NCBI GenBank assembly: GCA_037127955.1
Contig: JBAXXI010000001.1
Span: 73,217 to 137,216 of the forward strand
Length of the DNA stretch: 64,000 nucleotides
Direction of reading: 5' to 3'
Source: Candidatus Berkelbacteria bacterium
Lineage (GTDB): Bacteria; Patescibacteriota; UBA1384; UBA12157
Shown here: one piece after another, positions 5,411-64,000 of the stretch
Layout of the letters: each line of letters opens with the position of its first letter
How positions within the stretch are numbered: the first letter of the stretch is position 1
Notes under the pieces: model-generated
Seen by the model: the letters and a program-made list of their open reading frames with translations, nothing else
Databases searched by the model: none
What the model was told of the DNA's origin: nothing
Made by a program: the position numbers and the translations under genes

Positions 5411-5491
5411 GTTTTCCCACTATAAATTTTCACTATCGGCCTTGACCGTAGTGCTTTTTTGGCTGCGCCGACCGTAGCCTTGTGCGAAGGT

Positions 5492-5566
<75 letters not shown>

Positions 5567-5669
5567 TTAAAAAATTTGTCAGATGCTGTGCTCTAAAATA
5601 TTAACGAATATTTGGATATATGATGTTCCTAGCGAGGAACATCTGTCAAACCACTGAGCTAACCAGGCA
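5567..5669 (-). pseudogene. truncated tRNA-Phe-like 5' fragment carrying a roughly 54-nt D-loop insertion with a 9-bp hairpin, immediately 5' of the intact tRNA-Phe
   Basis: Minus strand GCCTGGTTAGCTCAGTGGT-[TTGACAGATGTTCCTCGCTAGGAACATC...]-AGAGCACAGCATCTGACAAA. It matches tRNA-Phe positions 1-19 and 20-38, then stops in the anticodon loop. No 3' half is present. Confidence 0.6.
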
Positions 5670-5728: not shown

Positions 5729-5860
5729 ACCTAAATACCAGACAAACCAGTATTTCCAAGTAAACTTTTTACTATAATATAGGACTCAACATGAAACTTA
5801 AATTGTATTAGGAGACTGATATTTACTACACAATTATTATATCAGATCAGAAGCATTTAA

Positions 5861-6391
5861 TCAAGTAAATATTCGCTCAAATACAATAATGGCCAAATAC
5901 GCATAACCTAGACCAAAAAATACACCAGAAATCACATCTAAAAGATAATGCATACCGTTATGAAGCCTGGACAGACCTAGTAAAATCAAAAAAACGACTG
6001 AAATGGGCCAAGTTTGCGGGTAATAATAAAAGAGTACAATTAAAGCCGCGCTGATACTACTCATATGGCCAGAGGGAAAAGTCGAATCATTATGGCGCGC
6101 GCCAATAGTTTTAATTTTTTCGTTCACCACGAACGGTCGAGGTTTGAAAAAAACTTTTCGCAAAACTCGTTTAATCAAAAAATCATTAATTAAAAAATGG
6201 ATTATGACGGCCAAAACCATGGTTAAACAAATTGACCAACCAATGATCGGTTCGCGCATGATGATCAAAATATTAATTGTCAGAAAAATCGAAACCAAAA
6301 AAACACTTGAACTGATAATTAAAGATAATTTATCAATCCATGTATTTTGCCCAAACTTATTCATTTTTTCGACGAGTTCAATTTGCGACAA
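5861..6391 (-). CDS. PAP2-family phosphatase (undecaprenyl-diphosphatase / phosphatidate phosphatase type)
   Basis: Three PAP2 motifs: KxxLRKVFFKPRP, PSGH, SRLHNGMHYLLD. Multiple TM helices. Confidence 0.75.
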   Translation of the reverse strand: MSQIELVEKMNKFGQNTWIDKLSLIISSSVFLVSIFLTINILIIMREPIIGWSICLTMVLAVIIHFLINDFLIKRVLRKVFFKPRPFVVNEKIKTIGARHNDSTFPSGHMSSISAALIVLFYYYPQTWPISVVFLILLGLSRLHNGMHYLLDVISGVFFGLGYAYLAIIVFERIFT

Positions 6392-8607: not shown

Positions 8608-10008
8608 CTATTTTTCCATTGAAAAAGGATAATTCTGATCAAAACAACCAGTACAAAAACCATAACCTGGCAATGGATCAATAGAATTTATCACGCCTTC
8701 GAGTGACAAATAACCAAGCGAATCAGCACCAATATACTGACAAATTTCTTCTTCAGTCATTCTTGATGCGATTAACTCGTGAATCCTCTGAGTATCTGTT
8801 CCTAAAAAACACGTATGTTTATAAGGTGGTGCCGTAATGCGTACATGAATCTCTTTTGCACCAACTTTTCGCAACGAAGGAACAAGTTTCCGCATCGAAT
8901 GACCTCGAACGACCGAATCGTCTATCAAAACTATTTTTTTACCATTCACTTCTCTTCGAAGCTTCATATGCTTCATATCCACCATCCTTGCGCGCAAATG
9001 TTCACTTGGTTGCATAAAAGTTCTGCCAACAAAATCATTTTTGATCAATCCGCGCCGATACTCAATACCTGATGCGGCAGCATAACCCAGCCCGGCCGGA
9101 ATACCAGTATTAGGTGTGGCACAAACAATCCATTCGTCAAGATTTTTGCAATCAACAGGATGTTCGTAAAAAAGTCTTTCTCCCATATGACGACGAGCAG
9201 TCTCGACCAAACGATCAAAAATAACAGTGCCGGGGAAAGTAAAATAAATCCATTCAAACATGCACATTTTTTCACATATTTTTGGTAATAATTGAATCTT
9301 CTTATAATCTCCATCATGATCAGCAATAATCATTTCGCCGGCGCCAAGATCACAGATCCATTCAATACCCAAACAATCAAAGGCGCTTGTTTCAGAGGCA
9401 AAAGCATAACCTTGATCATTAAACTGACCGAAAGATAATGGACGAATTCCCCACGGATCTCGAAGACCAATAAGTTTTGTCTTGGTCATAACAATCAATG
9501 AAAAAGAGCCTTTTAAACCAACTGTAGCCGCCCGAATTGCATCTTCAATACAATTAACTTCATCAAATCTTGAAAAATAAGCAATCGAACGAGCAATAAG
9601 TTCACTGTCAGATGTTCCGTCAGGTTCAAAACCTTTACAAACCAATAAATTATAAAGATCTGTAGTATTTGGCAAATTCCCGTTATGAGCCACAGCAATG
9701 TTTCCAAATTTTGTCGAAACAGTAAAAGGTTGAAAATTTGCCTTAGTATTTGAACCAGTATTAGTATATCTAACCTGACCAATTGCAGTTGAGGCTCGTT
9801 CTCCACTATCCAATACTAATCGACCCAAATTATCATCGTCGAAACGGTCAACACGACCTTCCCACGTTTCTTTAATAACCTGCTTCCCATCCGTCAGAGA
9901 AATACCGGCTGCTTCTTGTCCACGATTTTGTGACCACAAAAGCATAAAATACACCAAACCGATCAGATCTTCACCATTACGCTCAATAACTCCAACAATT
10001 CCGCACAT
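8608..10008 (-). CDS. purF: amidophosphoribosyltransferase
   Basis: N-terminal MCGIVG (class-II glutamine amidotransferase catalytic Cys). PRTase motif VLIDDSVVRGHSM. C-terminal Fe-S cysteines CTGCFDQNYP. Start taken at MCGIVG (10008), not the upstream M. Confidence 0.85.
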   Translation of the reverse strand: MCGIVGVIERNGEDLIGLVYFMLLWSQNRGQEAAGISLTDGKQVIKETWEGRVDRFDDDNLGRLVLDSGERASTAIGQVRYTNTGSNTKANFQPFTVSTKFGNIAVAHNGNLPNTTDLYNLLVCKGFEPDGTSDSELIARSIAYFSRFDEVNCIEDAIRAATVGLKGSFSLIVMTKTKLIGLRDPWGIRPLSFGQFNDQGYAFASETSAFDCLGIEWICDLGAGEMIIADHDGDYKKIQLLPKICEKMCMFEWIYFTFPGTVIFDRLVETARRHMGERLFYEHPVDCKNLDEWIVCATPNTGIPAGLGYAAASGIEYRRGLIKNDFVGRTFMQPSEHLRARMVDMKHMKLRREVNGKKIVLIDDSVVRGHSMRKLVPSLRKVGAKEIHVRITAPPYKHTCFLGTDTQRIHELIASRMTEEEICQYIGADSLGYLSLEGVINSIDPLPGYGFCTGCFDQNYPFSMEK

Positions 10009-11595: not shown

Positions 11596-13086
11596 TTAGA
11601 GTTTGACTCTTTTAGTTTTTATATACCACTGATTCACATTCAAAAATCTGTCTGTCTCAGAAAAACCAAAAATCTTGTCTAAACCTTTGACGTCACGGCT
11701 AACCACGTAATTAATTGTAGTCTGAGATAATTTAATAAAAGGTACATCGTCATCTAAAATTTTATTAAATTGATTATACTTATCTTCACGAACTTTAAAA
11801 TCAAAAGCCTGTCTAGCGTCTTCGAGTAAACGATCAGCATTTTTATTTGAATAATTAGAAAGATTCATCCCGGTCGCACTAATCTGCGACGTATGCCAAA
11901 ACGGATAAGGATCCGGGTCAGGACCATAATCTAAACCATACAATAAAAGATCGTAATTTCTTTTTGGGATAATATCTTTTTGCAAAGTCACATTATCGTA
12001 TTTTTGAATATTGATATTAATCTTAAGTGGCGCCCAATCAGCTTTTATTTTTTCGGCCATCTTGATATTGGTCGTGTTGTCAGAAGTCACCAAATTAAAC
12101 GTATATTGTTTATCAGCTACCTTGCCATCGCGCAAATTTTGACGCAAAATTTTATTCTTTAAATCATTATTTTTAACATTAAAGAAAAGTAAAAGTTGTC
12201 TTGGCAGTGTCATATTCAAAGTATTAGAGTCAACACTTTGCCATTCACCATTGTCAACTTTGAGGTAATTCATGATTTCGTAATTTTTAGCGGCTTTAAT
12301 CAAGTCGCTTTCGTTTGAATAAAATTTAACCACAATTTTGTCGATATAAGGTCTACCTTGCCAATAATCATCTCGAGCAACCAATGTAATTTGGTTTTTA
12401 TCCTCTTTAGAAACCTTATATGGACCAAAGCTAAAAATTGGCTCGGTCGATATGTAAAGGAACGGACTAAAAGGTTGTTTAAATTTAAAATCGATTAAAT
12501 TGTCTGAAGGGGTAGTGACTTCGATATTCGGCCAACTATTTTTAGCCTGAAGTTGAGAAGCTAAATCATAAGCATTGATACCATTTCGCAATTTGAATTC
12601 AAAAGTCTTATTACCATCCAAAACTTGCCAACTTTCGGCTAAATCCCCTTTAACCTCACCGGTCGGTTGCAATTTTGTTAAACCAGCATTAGTTAACCTT
12701 GTCAAATAACGATCTAGATCTTTAGGTTGACCAACAATACCTTCAGTTAAAACTCCGCCAGATACAGCTACAGCCTTGGTTGTTTTAATCCAATGATTTT
12801 GCCAAATAAAAAAAATCGACAAAATAATTACCCCTAATAGAACAAAAATAATAATATTATCGGTTTTTGATAAATATTTATGAACAGTCTTAAAACCAGA
12901 AAAAGTTTCTCGACTGAAAAACTTTTTAATTTCTTGAGCAGTAAATATTTTTTTAATTTTCTTAAAACTAACAACGAGTTCTTTAAGATAAGTGTAAATT
13001 TTAATAAAATTTGTTTTATTAAAAATCAAAACAAATTTACTTTTTAAAACTTTACCAAAATTAAGACAAGATTCGATTATCTTCAT
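11596..13086 (-). CDS. ABC transporter substrate-binding protein, family 5 (peptide/nickel type), N-terminal membrane anchor
   Basis: Overall SBP_bac_5-like pattern (DDYWQGRPYIDKIVVKFY...) and an N-terminal TM helix. Confidence 0.6.
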   Translation of the reverse strand: MKIIESCLNFGKVLKSKFVLIFNKTNFIKIYTYLKELVVSFKKIKKIFTAQEIKKFFSRETFSGFKTVHKYLSKTDNIIIFVLLGVIILSIFFIWQNHWIKTTKAVAVSGGVLTEGIVGQPKDLDRYLTRLTNAGLTKLQPTGEVKGDLAESWQVLDGNKTFEFKLRNGINAYDLASQLQAKNSWPNIEVTTPSDNLIDFKFKQPFSPFLYISTEPIFSFGPYKVSKEDKNQITLVARDDYWQGRPYIDKIVVKFYSNESDLIKAAKNYEIMNYLKVDNGEWQSVDSNTLNMTLPRQLLLFFNVKNNDLKNKILRQNLRDGKVADKQYTFNLVTSDNTTNIKMAEKIKADWAPLKININIQKYDNVTLQKDIIPKRNYDLLLYGLDYGPDPDPYPFWHTSQISATGMNLSNYSNKNADRLLEDARQAFDFKVREDKYNQFNKILDDDVPFIKLSQTTINYVVSRDVKGLDKIFGFSETDRFLNVNQWYIKTKRVKL

Positions 13087-27806: not shown

Positions 27807-27882
27807 AGTGCACCTCCATAATTTTTATACAAAATTCCGCGACAAGCGGAAGCTTGGCTATATTTTGACGTAATTTAGGCAT
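27799..27882 (-). CDS. leader mini-ORF (27 aa, MPKLRQNIAKLPLVAEFCIKIMEVHFA) whose N-terminus mimics the downstream galT-like protein and whose stop overlaps its TTG start
   Basis: SD AGGAGGG then ATG. First 8 codons encode MPKLRQNI, as in the downstream gene, using different synonymous codons. Contains palindromic motif B (GCCAAGCTTCCGCTTGTCGCGGAATTT). Confidence 0.4.
   Translation of the reverse strand: MPKLRQNIAKLPLVAEFCIKIMEVHFA
27832..27864 (-). promoter_or_regulatory. palindromic motif B copy 1 (minus strand GCCAAGCTTCCGCTTGTCGCGGAATTT) in the galT leader
   Basis: Inverted repeat TTCCGC/GCGGAA with a 5-nt spacer. Near-identical copies at 46215-46244 and 46325-46354. Confidence 0.6.
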
Positions 27883-44353: not shown

Positions 44354-44488
44354 TACTAATATTATTGTTTAAGAATCTCCATATTTCCAAATACTGAAAT
44401 TCCGCGAGATTTTAAAACTATTGTTTCAAGATCTCCATACTGCTTCGCGACTCGAGATATTAAAGCTATTGTTTTAATATCTCCATAA
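44354..44488 (-). repeat. three tandem diverged copies (about 45-57 nt) of the lepA 3' end (TATGGAGATATTAAAACAATAG and variants), with a degenerate motif A copy (44387-44408) between copies
   Basis: Minus strand: lepA ends ...TTTATGGAGATATTAAAACAATAG, then ...GTATGGAGATCTTGAAACAATAG... and ...ATATGGAGATTCTTAAACAATAA downstream. Confidence 0.7.
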
Positions 44489-46202: not shown

Positions 46203-46281
46203 GTATCTCCTTTGTAATTTCCGCGACAAACGGAAGTTTGGCCATAATTACGAAATTACGAATATTTGTTTGATTATCCAT
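46195..46281 (-). CDS. leader mini-ORF U2 (28 aa, MDNQTNIRNFVIMAKLPFVAEITKEIHG) mimicking the lepA N-terminus. Its stop overlaps the lepA ATG (CATGGATAA)
   Basis: The N-terminus MD..IRNFVI(M/I)A parallels lepA MDKIRNFVIIA with synonymous codon differences (CGT/AGG, AAT/AAC, TTC/TTT). Contains motif B (GCCAAACTTCCGTTTGTCGCGGAAATT). Confidence 0.4.
   Translation of the reverse strand: MDNQTNIRNFVIMAKLPFVAEITKEIHG
46215..46244 (-). promoter_or_regulatory. palindromic motif B copy 2
   Basis: Minus strand GGCCAAACTTCCGTTTGTCGCGGAAATT. Confidence 0.6.
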
Positions 46282-46354
46282 GTTGTTCCCCTGTTTCTAT
46301 GAAAACAAATTGATGTAATTTCGTAATTTCCGCGCAAATCCGAAGATTTGCCAT
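46274..46354 (-). CDS. leader mini-ORF U3 (26 aa, MANLRICAEITKLHQFVFIETGEQHG) containing the motif B variant. Its stop overlaps the U2 ATG
   Basis: ATGGCAAATCTTCGGATTTGCGCGGAAATTAC parallels the internal ATGGCCAAACTTCCGTTTGTCGCGGAAATTAC of U2. Confidence 0.3.
   Translation of the reverse strand: MANLRICAEITKLHQFVFIETGEQHG
46325..46354 (-). promoter_or_regulatory. palindromic motif B copy 3 (variant)
   Basis: Minus strand GGCAAATCTTCGGATTTGCGCGGAAATT. Confidence 0.5.
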
Positions 46355-46380
46355 TATTACAAAATTCATTGAGTTATTCA

Positions 46381-47775
46381 TTAGCGATGTTTCTCCATTT
46401 CTTTCAAAGCATCTTCTCTTGTATTAATTTTTCCATCCAGATAAGCTTGCTCTAAATAACTTTTAATTTGACCAACTTCTGGCCCTGCTTCAATCTTAAG
46501 TATTTTCATAATATCTTCGCCAGTGACCAAATCGAATTTTTTTACTTGATTTTTTTCTTCTTCACTGGTCTCGGCCTCAAATTTGGCGCGCAGCGCCAAT
46601 GCGTCTTGGTACATTTTCATATCTGGCTCATGATTCGGTCGAAGACTAGCCGACAAATCCGCTTTGGTCAAATCTAGAAGCAACTCAATATTTGGATCTA
46701 CAAAAAGCTTTTTTTGTTTGCGCTCACTCATACCAGTAAAAGCATGAACAATCCGCATGTGTTGACGGATCGCCCAACAAACTCTACTGATAAAATGACG
46801 CGAAAATTTAAAACGTTCCAGGATTTCTTCAGCTTGTTTAGCTGACTGAATATCATGATCAAAAAAAGTAATACTAGTTTTATTTTTTTCGGCCCTAAAA
46901 CCAATCGTTTCTGGTTTGGCAATATCATGAAGTAAAACTGTCCATACTAACTCCTCTGAGAGAGTTTCACCAATATTAATTAAAGCCAAAAGCACATGCG
47001 TCCAGACATCACCTTCAGCGTGAAATTCTTTTGGTTGTGGTACATTTTTCATTTTTGCCAGTTCTGGCGAAATTTCATCTAGCAAACCCAACTCATCAAG
47101 CATCTCAATAGCCAAATGTCTATTTTTTAATAATAACATTTTGCTAAATTCTTCACGAATTCTTTCAATAGAAATTTGCCCAATATTACTCGCTAATCGT
47201 TTGATCGCGATTTTAGATTCTTTTTCAAACATAAAACCGAAACGAATCGCAAATCTAACCGCTCTAAGCATACGCAAATAATCTTCGTTAATGCGATCAT
47301 CGGCATTTCCGATAAATCGAATATATTTTCTTTTAATATCTGTCAGTCCGTCAATATAGTCAATAATCTCAGATTTAATTGGATTGTAAAACATACCATT
47401 GATTGTAAAATCACGGCGTTGAGCATCTTTTAAGCTCGATGAAAACTTTACAGACTCAGGATGACGATGGTCACCCACTCCAACATCTTCACGAAAAGTC
47501 GCTACTTCAAATTCATGATTATCGATCTTAACCGCCACCACTCCAAATGATTTGCCGCGATCCTCAGCCATAGGAAAAATCTTTTTGATTTCTTCTGGAT
47601 GAGCAGCAGTGGCAATATCAATATCATGGGTCTCAACTCCTAAAATCATATCTCGAACAGCACCACCAGCAATATATGTTTCAAACCCCGCTTCTTGCAA
47701 GGTTTTCACCACATCAAAAGCCGCCGATTCTTCATCGGTCAAAGGACGTTCAATTTTAAAATTTATCTTTTCCAC
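46381..47775 (-). CDS. cca: CCA-adding tRNA nucleotidyltransferase / poly(A) polymerase family protein with HD domain
   Basis: Pol-beta-like head GGAVRDMILGVETHDIDIAT and a C-terminal HD domain pattern (HD...H). Confidence 0.8.
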   Translation of the reverse strand: MEKINFKIERPLTDEESAAFDVVKTLQEAGFETYIAGGAVRDMILGVETHDIDIATAAHPEEIKKIFPMAEDRGKSFGVVAVKIDNHEFEVATFREDVGVGDHRHPESVKFSSSLKDAQRRDFTINGMFYNPIKSEIIDYIDGLTDIKRKYIRFIGNADDRINEDYLRMLRAVRFAIRFGFMFEKESKIAIKRLASNIGQISIERIREEFSKMLLLKNRHLAIEMLDELGLLDEISPELAKMKNVPQPKEFHAEGDVWTHVLLALINIGETLSEELVWTVLLHDIAKPETIGFRAEKNKTSITFFDHDIQSAKQAEEILERFKFSRHFISRVCWAIRQHMRIVHAFTGMSERKQKKLFVDPNIELLLDLTKADLSASLRPNHEPDMKMYQDALALRAKFEAETSEEEKNQVKKFDLVTGEDIMKILKIEAGPEVGQIKSYLEQAYLDGKINTREDALKEMEKHR

Positions 47776-53873: not shown

Positions 53874-53948
53874 TGGTGGCTGAGGCGGGATTCGGACCTG
53901 CGACCTCGGCCTTATGAAGACCTCGCTCTACCACTGAGCTACTCAGCC
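53874..53948 (-). tRNA. tRNA-Met (CAU, elongator-type; could alternatively be Ile2/lysidine type), CCA encoded. One A-C mismatch in the T-stem
   Basis: Minus strand GGCTGAGTAGCTCAGTGGTAGAGCGAGGTCTTCATAAGGCCGAGGTCGCAGGTCCGAATCCCGCCTCAGCCACCA. Confidence 0.7.
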
Positions 53949-53957
53949 AAATTATTA

Positions 53958-54022
53958 ATGCTGAAGACCTCGCTCTATGATATTTCATCAAAATGTCTGT
54001 AATACCACTGAGCTACAGAGCC
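53958..54022 (-). pseudogene. truncated tRNA-Met-like 5' fragment with a roughly 26-nt D-loop insertion, immediately 5' of the intact tRNA-Met
   Basis: Minus strand GGCTCTGTAGCTCAGTGGTA-[TTACAGACATTTTGATGAAATATCAT]-AGAGCGAGGTCTTCAGCA. It stops in the anticodon loop. Same architecture as the Phe fragment at 5567-5669. Confidence 0.6.
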
Positions 54023-54058: not shown

Positions 54059-54133
54059 TGGTAGCGGGGAGTGGACTTGCACCACTGATCTCCGGGTTAT
54101 GAGCCCGACGGGATACTACTTCCCTACCCCGCG
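54059..54133 (-). tRNA. initiator tRNA-fMet (CAU), CCA encoded
   Basis: Minus strand starts CGCGGGG and ends CCCCGCTACCA (unpaired 1:72). Anticodon arm TCGGGCTCATAACCCGA with three G-C pairs. Confidence 0.85.
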
Positions 54134-56722: not shown

Positions 56723-56797
56723 GGGCAAATAGCTCAGTGGTAGAGCAAGCGTCTTATACACGCTCGGTCGTAGGTTCGAATCCTACTTTGCCCACCA
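56723..56797 (+). tRNA. tRNA with anticodon UAU (Ile, AUA-reading type), CCA encoded
   Basis: GGGCAAATAGCTCAGTGGTAGAGCAAGCGTCTTATACACGCTCGGTCGTAGGTTCGAATCCTACTTTGCCCACCA. Perfect anticodon stem AGCGT/ACGCT with loop CTTATAC. Confidence 0.65.
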
Positions 56798-56815
56798 AAA
56801 ATAAAATAATCAAAT

Positions 56816-56874
56816 ACACGCTCGGTCGTAGGCTCTCCTTCGGAGACTTCGACCGAATCATGCTTTGCCCACCA
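56816..56874 (+). pseudogene. partial 3'-half copy of the tRNA-Ile(UAU) gene with a hairpin insertion replacing the T-arm, 18 nt downstream of the intact tRNA
   Basis: ACACGCTCGGTCGTAGG-[CTCTCCTTCGGAGAC]-TTCGACCGAATCATGCTTTGCCCACCA parallels tRNA positions 38-76. Confidence 0.6.
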
Positions 56875-56926
56875 AAAAAATCGTTATGATAACAATCAAA
56901 CGATTTTTTTATTTTGAAAAAATACA

Positions 56927-58037: not shown

Positions 58038-61000
58038 TTAATTTATCTTTTTCATCTTGATATTGACTGAAACCAAGGTCTTTTCCTTCTCAAGATACAT
58101 AATATGAGACTTGAAATCAGTATATTCTGGTTTGGTGGCAGTCAAGTAATAAATACCAGGATTAACCAAGAACTTAAACCGACCATCGATATCAGTTACA
58201 TCTGTTTCGACTAATCTATTTGTACGTTTTTCGTAAATTCTCACGATCGTAGTCTCAAGTGGTCGACCAAAAATATCAGTAACAACACCATATGGTCTGG
58301 CTCGTTTGGTTCTTAAATATTCCCAAATCGCAATCAAAATATAAAATATTAAGGAGAAAATATAGAAAATATTAATCGAAATAATCATCAAAACAATGGC
58401 AAACATTATACCTAGAACCAACAAGACGATTCTAACAGTATTTAAAATTCGGTTAAGCTTGATGGTAAAGACTAACAATTTATAACTAAAAGATAATTTA
58501 GTTTGAGCATCCATTGGCACATTAATAGTGACCGTTTTATCCTTACTATCAATCTCTAAGACTTCACCAGTATAAACCGAATCGAAGAAACCACTAACTT
58601 TCATAACTGACGGGAAAGTATAACCATTTTTTTGAACTGTTAAATAGTATTTGCCTGTTCTGACCAAGAAGCCAAATCTACCTTCACCATCGGAAACCGC
58701 AGTTTCAAGTAAACGATTATATTCTTTATCAAAAATCTTAATCAAAGCATAAGGAATGGCTTGACCGGTTTGTGAATTAAAGACCGTACCCCATGGCTTT
58801 CGTCGTTTACGAATGCCCAAAAATTGGAACAAATGACTCAAAAGATAAAGAAGTTGTGGCCAAATATTGGCAGTCGCTAAAACAGCGTTTAGAACAATTG
58901 GTGCGGCCAATAAAGAACTGGTTGTAACAATAACAGCGTTGGAAACACTCTTAGCTTCTGGAGTTAAACCTTCGGTACTAATATTAGCAAACAAACTATT
59001 AATCTGATCTTGGGTTTTTTGCAAAGTACTAGTAACACCATTGCCAATAACTTTGATCTGTACATTTTGTTGAATCTGCCCGTCAGTCACAGTTAGCTTC
59101 TGGTCACCCACAGTATTTAGAGTAAAATCTGAGCCGTCGAACGAGTGTGTACCAGTATCAGACGCACTAAAGGTGTACTTATGATCACTATTCCAAATTA
59201 ATTCGGCTTTTTTATCAGAAGATGTAAAGTAAATTTCGCCTAGATAAGATTGAATTCTGGCGCCACCATTGTCAACCGCGCTCACTTTAACCTTATCGTT
59301 AAAAGTCTGACCAGCATTAATTTTATCTGGAGTATTATCAAGTACAAGATAAGCTTGAACCGCTAAGGCATCGCCTTTTTTGGTTGAAACATTCAAAATA
59401 CTAGATTTCAAAGAAGTATTACCGGCTGCGTCATAAGCTTTAATATAGAAATTATAAACAGTTTCTGGAGTCAATTGAGTCAAATCAAAATCAGTATTTG
59501 AAGTTGTACCGATCATGACATCAGTATCGGCATTGAATATTTTATAACCGGTTACACCGACATTATCGGTCGAAGCATCCCAGGCCAAACTAATCTCAGT
59601 CGATTTGATAACGGTAGCTCGAAGATTGGTCGGCGCAGTTGGCCCTTCATTATCCGTAACGTTCGTCGGCGTCAAAGCTAATTGTTCGGTTCCACTGGAG
59701 ATATGACCAAGTGAATCAATCGCTTTTAAGGTATAATAATAAGTCACGCCATTGGTCAAATTGGAATCAGTATAAGATGTTCCGGTTTGACCCGTAGCTA
59801 ATTTTACCCCTTGAACTGTTTTTTCAAGTGAACGATAAATGTCGATCGATTTGAAATATGTTGACGAAGGATTGGTCCAAGTCAATTCGACCTGACCATT
59901 ACCAGCTACTCCAGAAAAGTTAATCGGATTATCAATTGAGGCTGGGTAAGTTCCAAATGTCACTTCAATAGTGTGATTGGCCGTAATTGAGCTAAAGGTA
60001 TAAGTTTCAAGATCATATTTTGAAACGCCATCAACCTGAACATTCCTAATAAAGTAACCAGAATTGGCACTAATCGTAAAGGTTTTATTTGAAAGCGCAT
60101 CCACTATTATCGAACCACTTGGTGTAATACTACCTCCGTTACCTGACGAAGCAGTAATAGTATAAGTCGTAACAGCAATGGTCGCAGCGATCGTGTGATC
60201 AGTAGTGACATTGCTAAAAGTATAAGTAGCCAAAGCCCCAACCGAGACACCATCAATCTTCAAGTCTTCAATATAATAACCGGCATCAGGAGTGATAGTG
60301 TAGATCTGGCTCGAACCATCATCAACCAAAGTCGAACCAGATGGCGAGACTGTACCGTGGGCATTAATCGTGGCCGTAATGGTATGGCTTGTTCCAGTAG
60401 GAGTAACCGGATTTGCGCTAAAACTAGCCGAAATTGTATGATTCGTGGTTACAGTGGTAAAGGTATAATTACTGACCGAACCAACTGAAACACTATCAAC
60501 CAAAACATCTTCAATATGATAACCAGATGAAGGCAAAATCGTATAAGCCTGGTTTGAACCATAATTAACTGTTGTCGCACCGTCCGGATCAATCGAACCA
60601 TGCGAACCAGCTAAAGCCGTTATTGTTTTTGTATCAACTATAAATGTTGCTGAAATAGTATGAGAAGTAGTAACGTTGTTAAAAGTATAAGTTGTCACAG
60701 AACCGACCGAGACACCGTCAACTAATACATCCAAAACGTGGAAATTATCATTGGCCGTAATAGTGTAGGCTCGATTTGAACCATAATTAATCGCCGTAAC
60801 ACCGGTTGGTGAAATCGAACCATTAGTGCCAGCCGAAGCTGTAATATTATTAGTATCGATGGCGAAAGTCGCAGACACTGTTAAATTAGAGGTAATATTT
60901 GAATCGGTACGAGCTTCCGTTAAAACTCCATCAGACCAAGAAACAAAATGATAATGAGCACTTGGCACGGCCGTAACCTGAGAACCGTTACCTCCATAAT

Positions 61001-64000
61001 TAACGGTTTGTGGGGTGGTACCCGTGATCGAACCGTTTGAACCAGCATTATAGGTCAGAGTGTAAGTATTGATCGCAAAAGTCGCCGTTACAGTGATATT
61101 ATCTGTTACATTAAGGTCTGTTCTGGCTGCCGTCATCACATTATCCGACCATTTAACAAAATGATAATTGGCTGCCGGTACAGCTGTCACTTGAGCACCA
61201 TTTGAACCATAACCAACGGTTTGAGAGGTTGTACCAGTGATTGAGCCGTTTGAACCAGCATTATAGGTCAGGGTGTAAGTGTTGATGGCAAAATCAGCAG
61301 TGACGGTGATATCGGTAGTAATATTTAAATCGGTTCGAGCGGCTGTCATCACGTTGTCAGACCACTTAACGAAGTGATAATTCGTATCAGGTATAGCTAC
61401 AACTTGCGTACCATCCCCACCAACATAAACTGTCTGGGAAGCATTGCCAGAAATAGTACCATGTGAACCAGCTGTATAAGATAAAGTGTATTGATTTTCG
61501 GCAGCAAAATTAGCCGTGACTGTAATATTACCTGTCACATTTAGATCAGTTCTGGCCGCCGTCAAAACACCATCAGACCAAGTAGTAAAATGATAATTCA
61601 AATTTGGTACAGCTGTAACTTGTGTGCCGTTTGCACCATAATTGACGGTTTGTGGGGTAATACCTGTAATCGAACCATTCGCACCAGCTGAGTAAGTTAA
61701 GGTATAAGTATTAACAGCAAAAGTGGCGGTCACAGTTATGTCAGCTGTAATATCTAAATCAGTACGAGCGGCGGTCATGACATCGTCTGACCATTTAACA
61801 AAATGATAATTTGTATTTGGCGTAGCAATAACTTCACTACCGTTTGCACCATAACCAACAGTTTGAGGAGTTATGCCGACAATCGTACCGTTAGAATCAT
61901 GATTGTAAGTTAAGGTGTAAGTATTAATAGCGAAGGTCGCGGTGACTGTAATATCATTTGACACACTAGAATCAGTACGAGCCGCCGTCATCACATTATC
62001 TGACCACTTAACAAAATGGTAATTAGAATCTGGAACAGCCGTAACCTGAGAACCACTACCTCCGTAATTGACAGTCTGAGGAGTAGTACCAGTAATTGAA
62101 CCATGCGAACCAGCCGAGTAAGTTAAGGTATAAGAATTTATAGCAAATGTAGCACTAACTGTTAAATCAGAAGTAATGTTTTGATCAATACGGGCCGCGG
62201 TCATCACGTCGTCTGACCATTTAACAAAATGATAGTTGTCATCAGGAACAGCCAGGACTTGGCCACCGTTAGCACCATAATTGACGGTTTGAGGTGTTAC
62301 ACCAGACACAGAACCATGAGAACCAGCATTGTAAGTTAGAGTGTAAGTATCAATGGCAAAGGTCGCCGTTACGGTTACATCAGCCGTGATATTCGAATCA
62401 GTACGAGCAGCCGTTAAAACGCCATCAGACCAAGAAACAAAATGATAGTGAGCACTTGGCACGGCCGTAACCTGAGAACCGTTACCTCCATAATTGACGG
62501 TTTGTGGGGTAATACCTGTAATCGAACCATTCGCACCAGCAGAATAAGTCAAAGTATAAGTATCAATGGCAAAAGTGGCGGTGACCGAAATATTAGCTGT
62601 GATGTTTGAATCTGTTCTAGCCGCCGTCATGACATCGTCCGACCATTTAACAAAATGGTAATTGGCCGCCGGAACCGCTGTTACCTGCGTACCGCTAGCA
62701 CCATAATTGACAGTTTGTGGGGTAGTACCAGTGATCGAACCGTTTGCACCAGCAGAGTAAGTCAAAGTGTAAGTATCGATGGCAAAGGTTGCAGTGACTG
62801 TAATATTATCCGTCACATTCAAATCAGTACGAGCTGCCGTCATGATGTCGTCTGACCATTTGACAAAATGATAATGAGCGCTCGGTACGGCTGTAACTTG
62901 AGTACCATTTGCGCCATAATTAATGGTTTGAGGATTGGTACCAGTAACCGAGCCATTGCCATCGTTGTTATAAGTCAAAGTATAAGTATTAATCGCGAAA
63001 GTCGCCGTTACCGTAATATTAGCTGTAACGTTAAGATCAGTACGAGCCGCCGTTAAGACATTATCAGACCAAGAAACAAAATGATAATGAGCCGACGGAA
63101 CCGCTGTCACCTGTGTACCATTTGCGCCATAATTAATGGTTTGAGGATTGGTACCAGTAACCGAGCCATTGCCATCGTTGTTATAAGTCAAAGTATAAGT
63201 ATTAATCGCGAAAGTCGCCGTTACCGTAATATTAGCTGTAACGTTAAGATCAGTACGAGCCGCCGTTAAGACATTATCAGACCAAGAAACAAAATGATAA
63301 TGAGCCGACGGAACCGCTGTCACCTGTGTACTATTTGCGCCATAATTAATTGTTTGCGGCGTAGTGCCCGTAATTGAACCATTTGAACCGGCATTATAGG
63401 TTAAAGTGTATGTATCGATGGCAAATGTCGCCGTTACCGTAATATCAGCTGTAATATTTGAATCGGTACGAGCGGCTGTCAGTACGCCATCAGACCAGGA
63501 AACAAAATGATAATGAGAGTTTGGCACGGCGGTTACTTGAGTACCGTTTGTACCATAATCAACAGTCTGAGGGGTGGTACCAGTAATTGAACCATTTAAG
63601 CTAGCATTATAAGTCAAAGTGTAGGTATTAATCGCAAAGGTCGCAGTGACAGTCAAATTAGCTGTGATATTTTGATCAATACGGGCCGCCGTCATCACGT
63701 CGTCTGACCACTTAACAAAGTGGTAATTGGCGTCTGGCACAGCTAAAACTTGGCCACCATTAGCACCATAATTGACGGTTTGAGGTGTTACACCAGAGAC
63801 CGAACCATGAGAACCAGCATTGTAAGTTAGAGTATAAGTGTCGATCGCAAAAGTAGCCGTTACCGTAATATTGGCCGTAACATTAAGATCAGTACGAGCG
63901 GCAGTCATGACATCGTCTGACCATTTAACAAAATGGTAATGAGAGTTTGGTACGGCGGTGACTTGCGTACCGTTTGCGCCATAATCAACAGTCTGAGGGG
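58038..64000 (-). CDS. giant cell-surface protein (over 1956 aa; 5' end beyond window). At least 14 tandem 71-aa Listeria/Bacteroides-type repeats (TYTLTY...YHFVSWSD...), then divergent Ig-like repeats, two FN3 domains, two carboxypeptidase-regulatory-like domains and C-terminal TM segments
   Basis: Repeat consensus TYTLTYNAGSNGSITGTTPQTVNYGANGTQVTAVPSAHYHFVSWSDGVLTAARTDLNVTANITVTATFAIN. The FN3 hallmark is LTWTNP...YYYTLKAID. The reading frame continues open to the window end. Confidence 0.8.
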   Translation of the reverse strand, partial: PQTVDYGANGTQVTAVPNSHYHFVKWSDDVMTAARTDLNVTANITVTATFAIDTYTLTYNAGSHGSVSGVTPQTVNYGANGGQVLAVPDANYHFVKWSDDVMTAARIDQNITANLTVTATFAINTYTLTYNASLNGSITGTTPQTVDYGTNGTQVTAVPNSHYHFVSWSDGVLTAARTDSNITADITVTATFAIDTYTLTYNAGSNGSITGTTPQTINYGANSTQVTAVPSAHYHFVSWSDNVLTAARTDLNVTANITVTATFAINTYTLTYNNDGNGSVTGTNPQTINYGANGTQVTAVPSAHYHFVSWSDNVLTAARTDLNVTANITVTATFAINTYTLTYNNDGNGSVTGTNPQTINYGANGTQVTAVPSAHYHFVKWSDDIMTAARTDLNVTDNITVTATFAIDTYTLTYSAGANGSITGTTPQTVNYGASGTQVTAVPAANYHFVKWSDDVMTAARTDSNITANISVTATFAIDTYTLTYSAGANGSITGITPQTVNYGGNGSQVTAVPSAHYHFVSWSDGVLTAARTDSNITADVTVTATFAIDTYTLTYNAGSHGSVSGVTPQTVNYGANGGQVLAVPDDNYHFVKWSDDVMTAARIDQNITSDLTVSATFAINSYTLTYSAGSHGSITGTTPQTVNYGGSGSQVTAVPDSNYHFVKWSDNVMTAARTDSSVSNDITVTATFAINTYTLTYNHDSNGTIVGITPQTVGYGANGSEVIATPNTNYHFVKWSDDVMTAARTDLDITADITVTATFAVNTYTLTYSAGANGSITGITPQTVNYGANGTQVTAVPNLNYHFTTWSDGVLTAARTDLNVTGNITVTANFAAENQYTLSYTAGSHGTISGNASQTVYVGGDGTQVVAIPDTNYHFVKWSDNVMTAARTDLNITTDITVTADFAINTYTLTYNAGSNGSITGTTSQTVGYGSNGAQVTAVPAANYHFVKWSDNVMTAARTDLNVTDNITVTATFAINTYTLTYNAGSNGSITGTTPQTVNYGGNGSQVTAVPSAHYHFVSWSDGVLTEARTDSNITSNLTVSATFAIDTNNITASAGTNGSISPTGVTAINYGSNRAYTITANDNFHVLDVLVDGVSVGSVTTYTFNNVTTSHTISATFIVDTKTITALAGSHGSIDPDGATTVNYGSNQAYTILPSSGYHIEDVLVDSVSVGSVSNYTFTTVTTNHTISASFSANPVTPTGTSHTITATINAHGTVSPSGSTLVDDGSSQIYTITPDAGYYIEDLKIDGVSVGALATYTFSNVTTDHTIAATIAVTTYTITASSGNGGSITPSGSIIVDALSNKTFTISANSGYFIRNVQVDGVSKYDLETYTFSSITANHTIEVTFGTYPASIDNPINFSGVAGNGQVELTWTNPSSTYFKSIDIYRSLEKTVQGVKLATGQTGTSYTDSNLTNGVTYYYTLKAIDSLGHISSGTEQLALTPTNVTDNEGPTAPTNLRATVIKSTEISLAWDASTDNVGVTGYKIFNADTDVMIGTTSNTDFDLTQLTPETVYNFYIKAYDAAGNTSLKSSILNVSTKKGDALAVQAYLVLDNTPDKINAGQTFNDKVKVSAVDNGGARIQSYLGEIYFTSSDKKAELIWNSDHKYTFSASDTGTHSFDGSDFTLNTVGDQKLTVTDGQIQQNVQIKVIGNGVTSTLQKTQDQINSLFANISTEGLTPEAKSVSNAVIVTTSSLLAAPIVLNAVLATANIWPQLLYLLSHLFQFLGIRKRRKPWGTVFNSQTGQAIPYALIKIFDKEYNRLLETAVSDGEGRFGFLVRTGKYYLTVQKNGYTFPSVMKVSGFFDSVYTGEVLEIDSKDKTVTINVPMDAQTKLSFSYKLLVFTIKLNRILNTVRIVLLVLGIMFAIVLMIISINIFYIFSLIFYILIAIWEYLRTKRARPYGVVTDIFGRPLETTIVRIYEKRTNRLVETDVTDIDGRFKFLVNPGIYYLTATKPEYTDFKSHIMYLEKEKTLVSVNIKMKKIN
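60650..64000 (-). repeat. tandem 213-bp coding repeats inside the giant surface protein gene (some adjacent units identical, e.g. about 62940-63366)
   Basis: Identical translated mini-ORFs in the six-frame track at 62868 and 63081 (offset 213 bp), and a visibly periodic DNA sequence. Confidence 0.8.

Follow-up and report, generated by a model that had tools for sequence, protein, structure and literature searches.

Displaced tRNA halves beside three tRNA genes

We analysed a 64,000-nucleotide stretch of a Candidatus Berkelbacteria genome (contig JBAXXI010000001.1, positions 73,217 to 137,216; hereafter the window), in which three tRNA genes each lie next to a displaced half of a tRNA of the same isotype that is interrupted by a hairpin. 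These relics probably descend from invasions by a very small cassette that encodes a GIY-YIG nuclease. The window has 37% G+C and carries housekeeping genes throughout. Its 12 tRNA genes, called with ARAGORN and Rfam, were each queried by blastn against the window, and same-isotype partial copies were found for only three of them (Phe, Met and Ile), each time on the strand of the parent gene. The chance expectation for an exact match of 16-19 nt less than 100 nt from its parent gene is about 1e-7 per locus. The three loci are made up as follows.

5492-5566, minus strand: intact tRNA-Phe(GAA), allele B, acceptor GCCTAGT/ACTAGGC (ARAGORN; Rfam 68 bits; 100% identical in the related locus L110)
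5567-5578, minus strand: spacer S1, CAAATTTTTTAA, 12 nt, from the Phe 5' fragment to the intact gene (identical in L110)
5579-5595, minus strand: Phe fragment nt 20-35 (TAGAGCACAGCA-T-CTGA), ending at anticodon position 35 (blastn 12/12; L110 alignment)
5596-5620, minus strand: hairpin module M2 (AAATATTcgttAATATTT), a 25-nt insertion (alignment of window and L110; fold)
5621-5649, minus strand: hairpin module M1 in the D-loop (TTGACA-GATGTTCCTcgctAGGAACATC-A; fold -12.4 kcal/mol; promoter scan)
5650-5668, minus strand: Phe fragment nt 1-19, with the old acceptor strand GCCTGGT (blastn 18/19)
53874-53948, minus strand: intact elongator-type tRNA-Met(CAU), upstream of ftsH (ARAGORN and Rfam)
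53949-53961, minus strand: Met spacer, GCATTAATAATTT, 13 nt (relatives have spacers ending in AAAATTT at the equivalent place)
53962-54022, minus strand: tRNA-Met 5' fragment, between tRNA-fMet and tRNA-Met (blastn; orthologue in L001)
54059-54133, minus strand: initiator-type tRNA-Met (ARAGORN; in relatives the GIY-YIG cassette begins right after its CCA)
56723-56797, plus strand: intact tRNA-Ile(UAU) (ARAGORN and Rfam)
56814-56874, plus strand: tRNA-Ile 3' fragment, A35 to CCA (blastn 19/19 and 19/21)

All three relics break at anticodon position 35, carry a hairpin insertion in the D-loop or T-loop, and are separated from the intact gene by spacers of 12 nt (Phe), 13 nt (Met) and 16 nt (Ile). 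The first 19 nucleotides of the Phe fragment differ from the gene at one position (G5 versus A5 in the gene); they are followed by an insertion of 54 nt in total (5596-5649, M1 plus M2) and by a distal part that consists of tRNA nt 20-30 and then T-CTGA (5579-5595). In the Met fragment, nt 1-20 (54003-54022) carry the acceptor strand GGCTCTG instead of the gene's GGCTGAG, a 25-nt insertion named M3 (53978-54002, GACATTT..AAATATC) occupies the same D-loop position as the Phe insertion, and nt 20-35 (53962-53977) are identical to the gene at 16/16 positions by blastn. The Ile relic lies on the other side of its gene, in the order gene, 16-nt spacer, nt 34/35-52 (56814-56832, 19/19), hairpin and nt 55-75 (56854-56874, 19/21), with the T-arm replaced by the hairpin CGGTCG-TAGG-CTCTCCttcGGAGAC-TT-CGACCG. 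Folding of 56798-56915, which includes this hairpin and a terminator (56875-56911), gave a z of -6.15.

A preliminary description, made from the letters of the window, had proposed partial same-isotype copies beside these three tRNAs, and blastn bore this out, together with the end of the 5' halves in the anticodon loop, the shared D-loop position of the insertions and the acceptor-stem substitutions. The coordinates and distances given there were off by 1-4 nt, with part of the spacer folded into each fragment; it was otherwise accurate. It had also recommended a relaxed covariance search for tRNA fragments. The Rfam scan of the whole window at gathering thresholds returned the 12 intact tRNAs and nothing else, and relaxed Rfam scans reported no truncated tRNA match at the Phe, Met or Ile fragment. 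Relaxed scans that included the GIY-YIG leaders and the GC-rich Saccharibacteria inserts described below gave intact tRNAs and noise only.

An assembly or strain-merging artefact has to be considered, given that the source is a metagenome-assembled genome and that tRNAs are conserved repeats at which assemblers can switch strains. The Phe locus is, however, 100% identical in three contigs from other samples and assemblies (L087-L089), and other species carry orthologues of the Phe and Met fragments that have diverged. The fragments are therefore not an assembly artefact, as the preliminary description had argued, and an artefactual origin has a negligible probability.

The displaced halves are older alleles

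Loci from relatives were labelled L001, L002 and so on, and those for the Met locus were anchored on ftsH. The preliminary description had named absence of the fragments from relatives among the observations that would refute it; the outcome was in its favour, with orthologous Phe fragments found in L110 and L090, and Met fragments in L001, L081 and L082. At the Phe locus, L092, L093 and L094 are naive, and the orthologous 5' fragment of L090 contains three hairpins flanked by TA. In L110 the order is 5' fragment A (GCCTGGT, with M1), spacer S1, intact gene B (GCCTAGT/ACTAGGC), an 18-nt spacer S2 and 3' fragment C (nt 37-76, ACCAGGC). Fragments A and C are complementary to one another but not to the intervening gene B; together they make up an older tRNA-Phe allele that was split in the anticodon loop. 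L109 holds an intact tRNA-Phe with GCCTGGT/ACCAGGC, the acceptor of the window's fragment, followed by an 18-nt spacer and a 3' fragment. The current Phe gene differs from the older allele by one compensated base pair (G5:C68 to A5:U68).

Four states were distinguished at the Met locus. L002 is naive, with tRNA-fMet, 50 nt and tRNA-Met (FtsH 71% identical). L085 and L086 have a GIY-YIG open reading frame (ORF) 6 nt from the intact tRNA-Met and no fragment. L001 (FtsH 81%) has both ORF and fragment, in the order tRNA-fMet, structured leader of about 130 nt, GIY-YIG ORF of 85 aa, Met 5' fragment, 14-nt spacer and intact tRNA-Met, and the same order (fMet, leader, GIY-YIG, fragment, spacer, Met) was found in L081 and L082. 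The window has the fragment only. In L001 the stop codon of the ORF falls inside the tRNA-Met fragment, which has the acceptor GGCTCTG as in the window, breaks at nt 35 and contains two D-loop hairpins, one of them homologous to that of the window.

The Met acceptors of these loci form a succession of alleles. The window and L001 both keep GGCTCTG as a fossil and use GGCTGAG in the working gene; GGCTGAG is in turn the fossil of L081, and the working acceptor of L081 and L082 is GGCAGTG. An A6-C67 mismatch in the intact tRNA-Met of L001 is what replacement of the 5' half alone, giving a chimera, would be expected to leave. At the Ile locus of L002, a 3' fragment located 20 nt downstream of tRNA-Ile is closer to the functional allele of the window than to the gene of L002 itself. 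The fragments are thus older alleles displaced by the present genes. The preliminary description had treated them as copies of the present genes, a view that the Phe relic contradicts, its GCCTGGT being that of the intact L109 gene and the complement of the L110 3' fragment.

A scan of about 1.5 Mb of loci from the Candidate Phyla Radiation (CPR) extended the pattern to other isotypes. Same-isotype fragments adjoin tRNA-Ile, Val, Leu, Gly, Lys, Met and Phe; 14 of 18 same-strand fragments lie within 350 nt of the parent gene, and nine of 14 5' fragments end at nt 35 or 36.

Some loci in relatives have further peculiarities. The T-loop insertion of the tRNA-Phe 3' fragment in L109 (870-905) and L108 (1-37), GCCTTTAGGTTAGCTG, resembles tRNA-Phe nt 1-13 (GCCTGGTTAGCTC); judged from this resemblance, the T-loop of the fossil 3' half would hold a piece of the 5' end. 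In L082 (1181-1350) a downstream tRNA-Met copy is interrupted after U33 by an insertion (ATATCGAAATCAGTTCAACTGG...) that reaches the contig end and may be an intron or another anticodon-loop cassette. At Saccharibacteria-type loci (L005 6850-7100, L006 19300-19500, L007 9250-9560, L009 about 9420-9590), an inverted T-loop/T-stem copy, a GC-rich insert and a direct 3' tRNA fragment lie 3' of tRNA-fMet or tRNA-Lys. The GC-rich structured insert is about 110-250 nt long and conserved (GGGTCGGaAAAAC..GTTTTCCc..GGAGAGtAGCGAG..), with no Rfam match.

Hairpin modules in the displaced halves

The 54-nt Phe insertion, described previously as one hairpin-bearing insertion, proved to be two separate modules. 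M2 is missing from the orthologous fragment of L110 and has TA on both sides, that is, a 2-bp duplication around a clean insertion, which is the target-site duplication looked for in palindromic modules resembling miniature inverted-repeat transposable elements or repetitive extragenic palindromes. M1 is common to the window and L110, with two substitutions, one of which changes a G-C pair to G-U on the sense strand. The promoter scan detected in M1 a sigma-70-like TTGACA-18-CATCAT, whose equivalent in L110 is TTGACA-18-TATCAT.

Modules M3 to M7 are also TA-flanked and share CAGAC...GTCA ends. Across the window, L001 and L090 the modules have ends of the form (C)AGAC/T...G/ATCA followed by TA, and their stems are unrelated yet fully paired. 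In more distant lineages the hairpins are GC-rich and occupy either this same site in the D-loop or the T-loop. The modules were seen in displaced tRNA halves only. They may be parts or footprints of a cassette; alternatively, they may mark cut sites of a nuclease, being able to accumulate only in a non-essential copy. GIY-YIG enzymes leave 2-nt 3' overhangs, as established for I-TevI, and such overhangs would fit the TA duplication around M2.

Other interpretations of the hairpins were tried. A scan of the window for dispersed copies of the motif (GAY-stem...RTC-ATA) gave four matches, the Phe hairpin and three at chance level. A general dispersed hairpin family was therefore rejected for the window, as only the Phe hairpin among the four sits in a fragment. 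A promoter function for all hairpins was rejected as well, for it works for M1 of the Phe relic and not for the Met or L090 hairpins. Readings as CRISPR-like, guide-RNA or omega-RNA elements were dropped on anatomy: the loci lack a repeat array and a nearby gene for TnpB, IscB or Cas, and their scaffolds are much too short.

GIY-YIG genes adjoin tRNA genes in relatives

In L019, L037 and L094, which represent three isotypes, a GIY-YIG ORF (PF01541) is situated precisely between the intact tRNA and its displaced 5' half. In L019 the tRNA is tRNA-Leu-UAG; in L037 (Gly-GCC) the stop codon of the ORF is the TAG at tRNA nt 8-10; and in L094 (Leu-UAA) a fragment of nt 1-35 with two hairpins is followed by an 84-aa GIY-YIG ORF and then the tRNA. 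In L001, L081 and L082 the ORF abuts the fragment. The preliminary description had stated that no element lies between fragment and gene. This holds in the window and fails in L019, L037 and L094, where the ORF occupies that very position, and the window would therefore represent the ORF-less end state of a mobile-element process.

The association was examined in 91 loci that had not been fetched with the nuclease as bait (1.47 Mb and 110 tRNAs, the window included). All six ORFs of the family detected there with a hidden Markov model (HMM) lie 4-169 nt from a tRNA gene, and four of them abut a fragment. tRNA genes with 170-nt flanks make up about 3% of this DNA, which gives a chance expectation of about 1e-9. 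The same HMM search returned no ORF of the family from the window.

The ORFs between or beside tRNA sequences are stand-alone and encode 80-85 aa, and the proteins overall have 79-93 aa and consist of the catalytic domain only, with catalytic residues that do not vary among 21 homologues. The solved structures closest to them are those of UPF0213 proteins (1zg2, 1ywl) and SLX1, whereas I-TevI is marginal (E = 0.006); the DNA-binding domain present in I-TevI and Seg proteins is missing from them. L083 and L084 carry an identical ORF and leader in two different contexts, which shows that the unit is mobile, and presence/absence polymorphism was seen at a conserved target as well. The L001 subfamily always begins right after a tRNA CCA (fMet, Gln, Asp) and has a hairpin leader containing CACGTGG.

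Upstream of GIY-YIG ORFs we observed a conserved, hairpin-rich leader of 100-250 nt (L001 9409-9547; also L081, L083, L085, L098, L102 and L106). It follows directly on a tRNA CCA (CCA|CGTAAAA...TTTTACGTGG), contains CACGTGG motifs and belongs to no Rfam family; possible roles are those of an operator, of a target mimic or of an RNA that partners the minimal nuclease. In the literature on CPR or other bacteria we found no description of the tRNA-half architecture or of its GIY-YIG association. A literature search on COG2827/UPF0213 gave noise only, and a scan of IMG/VR with the GIY-YIG alignment gave a single weak partial match.

These loci also bear on a more familiar source of tRNA fragments. 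The integration of prophages, integrative and conjugative elements and islands creates such fragments, according to earlier work (Reiter 1989; Williams 2002) in the part of PMC9897764 that cites it. The relics could thus be classical attachment-site scars, left by integration in the anticodon loop (sublocation I of Williams 2002) and near-complete deletion that brought attL and attR within a few nucleotides. tRNA fragments are a well-known product of element integration (PMC9897764), and the anticodon stem-loop is a classic attB. The relics share with integrase scars a same-isotype partial tRNA in direct orientation with a breakpoint in a tRNA stem-loop; the downstream 3' Ile fragments of the window and L002 even have the canonical orientation, and one distant GIY-YIG homologue adjoins a Phage_integrase ORF (L104). 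However, Pfam scans of the window's 52 main ORFs gave no integrase, recombinase, transposase or GIY-YIG match, and no integrase lies beside any fragment examined, including those of L001, L002, L090, L109 and L110. Two of the three window relics are 5' halves, and their 12-16 nt spacers and hairpin interruptions also depart from integrase scars. Spacers are uniformly 12-30 nt over many independent loci and lineages, most fragments being as close to the parent gene as reported above. Sequence that intervenes between a fragment and its gene, where present, is a GIY-YIG ORF of 250 nt, not an element of kilobase scale. We consider attachment-site scars very improbable, in line with the preliminary description, which had set the relics apart from classic integrase scars.

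Copies of gene ends at lepA and galT

The preliminary description had drawn a parallel with the protein genes lepA and galT, and both do carry analogous copies of their termini. Upstream of lepA (minus strand) there are two diverged copies of its first 12 or so codons, each followed by a hairpin (46211-46366); the proximal copy forms an upstream ORF of 28 codons whose stop overlaps the real start codon. At the other end, three tandem copies of the last 22 nt (TATGGAGATATTAAAACAATAG) lie at 44378-44480, with an inverted complement after each of copies 1 and 2 that gives a hairpin. Fossils of both ends thus flank the intact lepA, as they do tRNA-Phe in L110.

The displaced 5' copies of lepA and galT both precede a 27-nt motif, GCCAARCTTCCGYTTGTCGCGGAAWTT, with a TTCCG/CGGAA hairpin. 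Its sites in the window are:

27835-27852: motif at the galT 5' copy
46219-46236: motif at the lepA 5' copy

The core of the motif occurs twice in the window as an exact match, where chance would give 0.08 occurrences. L092 has a related copy at 12689-12702, upstream of an ORF that follows tRNA-Leu(UAA). This distribution suggests a shared element end or a portable module of the 5' untranslated region.

The copies at protein genes are relevant to the possibility that the duplications arise by endogenous break repair or template switching, with no mobile element involved and GIY-YIG genes merely accumulating near tRNAs. Breaks or stalled forks at the stem-loop DNA of tRNA genes and at the conserved stretches of lepA and galT would then give short duplications and fold-back synthesis. 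In agreement with this, many copies adjoin an inverted complement of part of themselves, as in Phe (TTGACAGATG vs CATCTGACAA), Ile (CGGTCG vs CGACCG), the T-arm copies of L006 and L031 and the lepA 3' end (GAGATATTAAA vs TTTAATATCTC); the spacers are very short, and Phe allele B is a single compensated base pair away from the old allele. Simple tandem duplication was nevertheless rejected, for the spacers do not repeat the native flanks. The fossil Ile half and the intact gene of L002 clearly belong to different alleles, three isotypes repeat the arrangement of an ORF whose stop codon is fused to the tRNA, and the single inserted motif shared by lepA and galT favours an element. We therefore judge purely endogenous repair to be improbable.

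Conservation of the Phe and Met relics

The Phe fragment with M1 and spacer is identical between the window and L110 at 75 of 78 positions (96%). The flanking genes of the two loci have 60-85% nucleotide identity, and their four-fold degenerate sites are near saturation, being 31-66% identical where 34% is expected at random. On the upstream side of the fragment the intergenic DNA is unalignable, and conservation begins exactly at fragment nt 1. At the Met locus the fragment acceptor GGCTCTG is kept in the window and L001 despite a four-fold identity of 0.47 in ftsH. L090 has, at the same D-loop position, a hairpin with a wholly different and fully paired stem. The conservation of the Phe relic implies either selection on the relic or recent lateral spread between species. 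In the second case, the block of fragment, spacer and gene would have moved recently by recombination, with tRNA sequence serving as homology arms; the window contains ComEC, RecG and RuvC genes, and the presence of ComEC makes DNA uptake plausible. With 2-4 orthologues per locus, the sample is too small to separate selection from lateral spread or to test covariation.

The first possibility corresponds to a relic that functions as a cis element in the pre-tRNA leader, either as a promoter (M1, TTGACA-18-C/TATCAT) or as an element for folding or processing; such a role would be compatible with an origin from a mobile element. The near-identity of the Phe relic amid diverged four-fold sites and unalignable upstream DNA argues for it, as do the retention of GGCTCTG at the Met locus, the full pairing of the replaced L090 stem, the Phe relic substitution (one of three) that turns G-C into G-U on the sense strand, and the promoter-like hexamers within M1 of both loci. 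On the other hand, naive relatives manage without the relic (L092, L093 and L109 on the 5' side of Phe; L002 for Met), a conserved upstream promoter, TTGATT-17-TATAAT, is already present, the promoter reading does not extend to the Met or L090 hairpins, no Rfam family matches, and covariation is beyond reach with so few orthologues. We regard a cis-acting function as the explanation of the relics as rather unlikely.

Two further conserved stretches were noted around the Phe locus. The non-coding DNA 3' of tRNA-Phe (5411-5491, minus strand; ACCTTCGCACAAGGCTACGGTCGGCGCAGCC...GATAGTGAAAATTTATAGTGG) is highly conserved in L109 and L110, where the adjacent 140-aa ORF is 51-54% identical. At 5800-5864, the promoter-like TTGATT-17-TATAAT, with ATCAGYCTCCTAAT after it, is likewise conserved in L090, L109 and L110. 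They may be structured leader and regulatory elements.

A proposed cassette model for the relics

Taking these observations together, we consider it probable, with considerable room for doubt, that the relics are ORF-less remains of GIY-YIG cassette invasions or of DNA breaks that such cassettes cause. tRNA genes in this lineage, and widely in Patescibacteria, would be broken repeatedly in the DNA of the anticodon loop, mostly after nt 35, and a broken gene would be restored by a new copy of the lost half while the old half stays a few nucleotides away. The most likely agent would be a very small cassette, consisting of a hairpin-rich leader and an 80-85 aa GIY-YIG gene (UPF0213/SLX1-like), whose 3' end runs straight into the regenerated tRNA.

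The proposed sequence of events starts with a cassette that would reside beside a tRNA gene and be transcribed and processed together with it (tRNA promoter, RNase P), the host tRNA being kept functional by a duplicated half rather than by an intron. A break would then occur in the anticodon-loop DNA of a cassette-free allele, and its repair would draw on a donor that bears the cassette and is homologous on just one side. The donor tRNA half, with the ORF if present, would be copied and joined to the unresected old half, giving the order old half, (cassette), regenerated tRNA. Finally the ORF would decay and be deleted, leaving the state seen in the window; ORF decay and deletion are the usual life cycle of a homing-endonuclease gene. 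In the window the ORF would have been deleted at all three loci, leaving behind a half, one or two short hairpin modules (inserted in the T-loop, or in the D-loop at TA) and an A/T-rich spacer of 8-16 nt. The fragment anatomy, the orthology and old-allele identity of the halves, the position of the ORFs and their strict association with tRNA genes in relatives, and the TA duplication around M2 are shown by the data; breakage by the nuclease, an origin of the duplication in one-ended or illegitimate repair from the donor, and a derivation of the hairpins from the cassette or from break-repair scars are inferred.

Several observations weigh against this cassette model. The 64-kb window has no GIY-YIG ORF, and no remnant of one was found by tblastn or by Pfam on the main ORFs, so the link rests on the relatives. 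No relative shows an ORF at the Phe locus. The L001-type ORF lies upstream of the fragment and not between fragment and gene, an arrangement that needs two successive events. No ORF was found between a tRNA and a 3' fragment, and the Ile relic is linked to the cassette by analogy alone. The proteins have no DNA-binding domain and are closer to UPF0213/SLX1 than to I-TevI, so their homing activity, judged from sequence, is putative. The regenerated tRNA would keep any target internal to the tRNA, which leaves simple homing immunity unaccounted for. Lastly, the Phe relic is far more conserved than neutral DNA, as a dead scar should not be.

More tentatively, and as something possible rather than probable, Patescibacteria could carry an undescribed minimal mobile element of about 0.3-0.5 kb, made of hairpins and a catalytic-domain-only GIY-YIG nuclease, that inserts at anticodon position 35 and analogously at gene ends of the lepA/galT type. 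It would be self-neutralised by a duplicated gene half and not by an intron or intein, and its relics would be selected (as promoter, leader RNA or homology arms) or still be moving between species.

If the cassette model is right, selfish nucleases would have a third mode of life within essential genes, next to self-splicing introns and inteins, and the model would give a biological role to the widespread uncharacterised GIY-YIG proteins of the UPF0213/YhbQ type. It would also explain tRNA allele turnover in CPR by serial replacement, with the fossils as a dated record of alleles. The fossils may reveal nuclease cut sites (D-loop TA, T-loop, anticodon nt 35) that purifying selection hides in functional genes. 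In practice, the relics can confuse tRNA annotation and strain-resolved metagenome assembly.

Comparison with known systems

Homing elements of fungal mitochondria, of the Allomyces atp6 type, supply a gene with a replacement terminus, and the terminus that they displace persists beside it as a pseudo-fragment. Published work also describes duplication of parts of host genes through the mobility of homing-endonuclease genes or introns. As in these elements, a fresh copy of the interrupted end keeps the gene intact at the loci described here while the old end persists alongside, and an endonuclease ORF lies between old and new end and is later lost. Here, however, the target is a tRNA gene in a bacterial chromosome with the break at anticodon nt 35, the nuclease is an 80-85 aa protein reduced to its catalytic domain, hairpins interrupt the displaced half, and the window contains no ORF.

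SegB, a free-standing GIY-YIG homing endonuclease of T4/T6-like phages, cuts inside tRNA genes at the motif RAWTSGAAC, which is the T-loop box, and drives co-conversion as well as segmental duplication and amplification of tRNA loci (PMC13096335). The embedding of a GIY-YIG gene among tRNA genes is common to both systems. SegB is a larger phage protein with a DNA-binding part, and its amplified units are whole tRNA genes and unstable, whereas the half-tRNA fossils are stable and lie in a cellular genome.

In CPR rRNA genes, insertions occur at the tips or bases of stem-loops; some encode GIY-YIG proteins, many are short without an ORF, and they are not intron-like (PMC11270868). The organism group, the location in stem-loops of structural RNA and the GIY-YIG or ORF-less character are shared with the tRNA loci. 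The rRNA insertions interrupt a functional gene and must be removed or tolerated, whereas here only displaced halves are interrupted and the gene is regenerated.

Two other arrangements were considered and rejected. A group I intron in the anticodon loop is at odds with the complete tRNA that follows the 5' fragment, and no Rfam intron family matches. Split or permuted tRNAs of the archaeal type do not fit the intact same-isotype gene that is adjacent each time, and no partner half is present in the window.

Other features of the window

tRNA-Leu(UAA), at 2107-2191, is the sole one of the 12 tRNAs without a CCA end as called by ARAGORN (...GGGCAC). The other 11 tRNA genes encode CCA, and a gene for a CCA-adding enzyme lies at 46381-47775. 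An ORF of 1956 aa on the minus strand (58038-63908) contains about 14 tandem repeats of 213 nt (71 aa) that are 62-83% identical, and it looks like a large repetitive protein of surface type.

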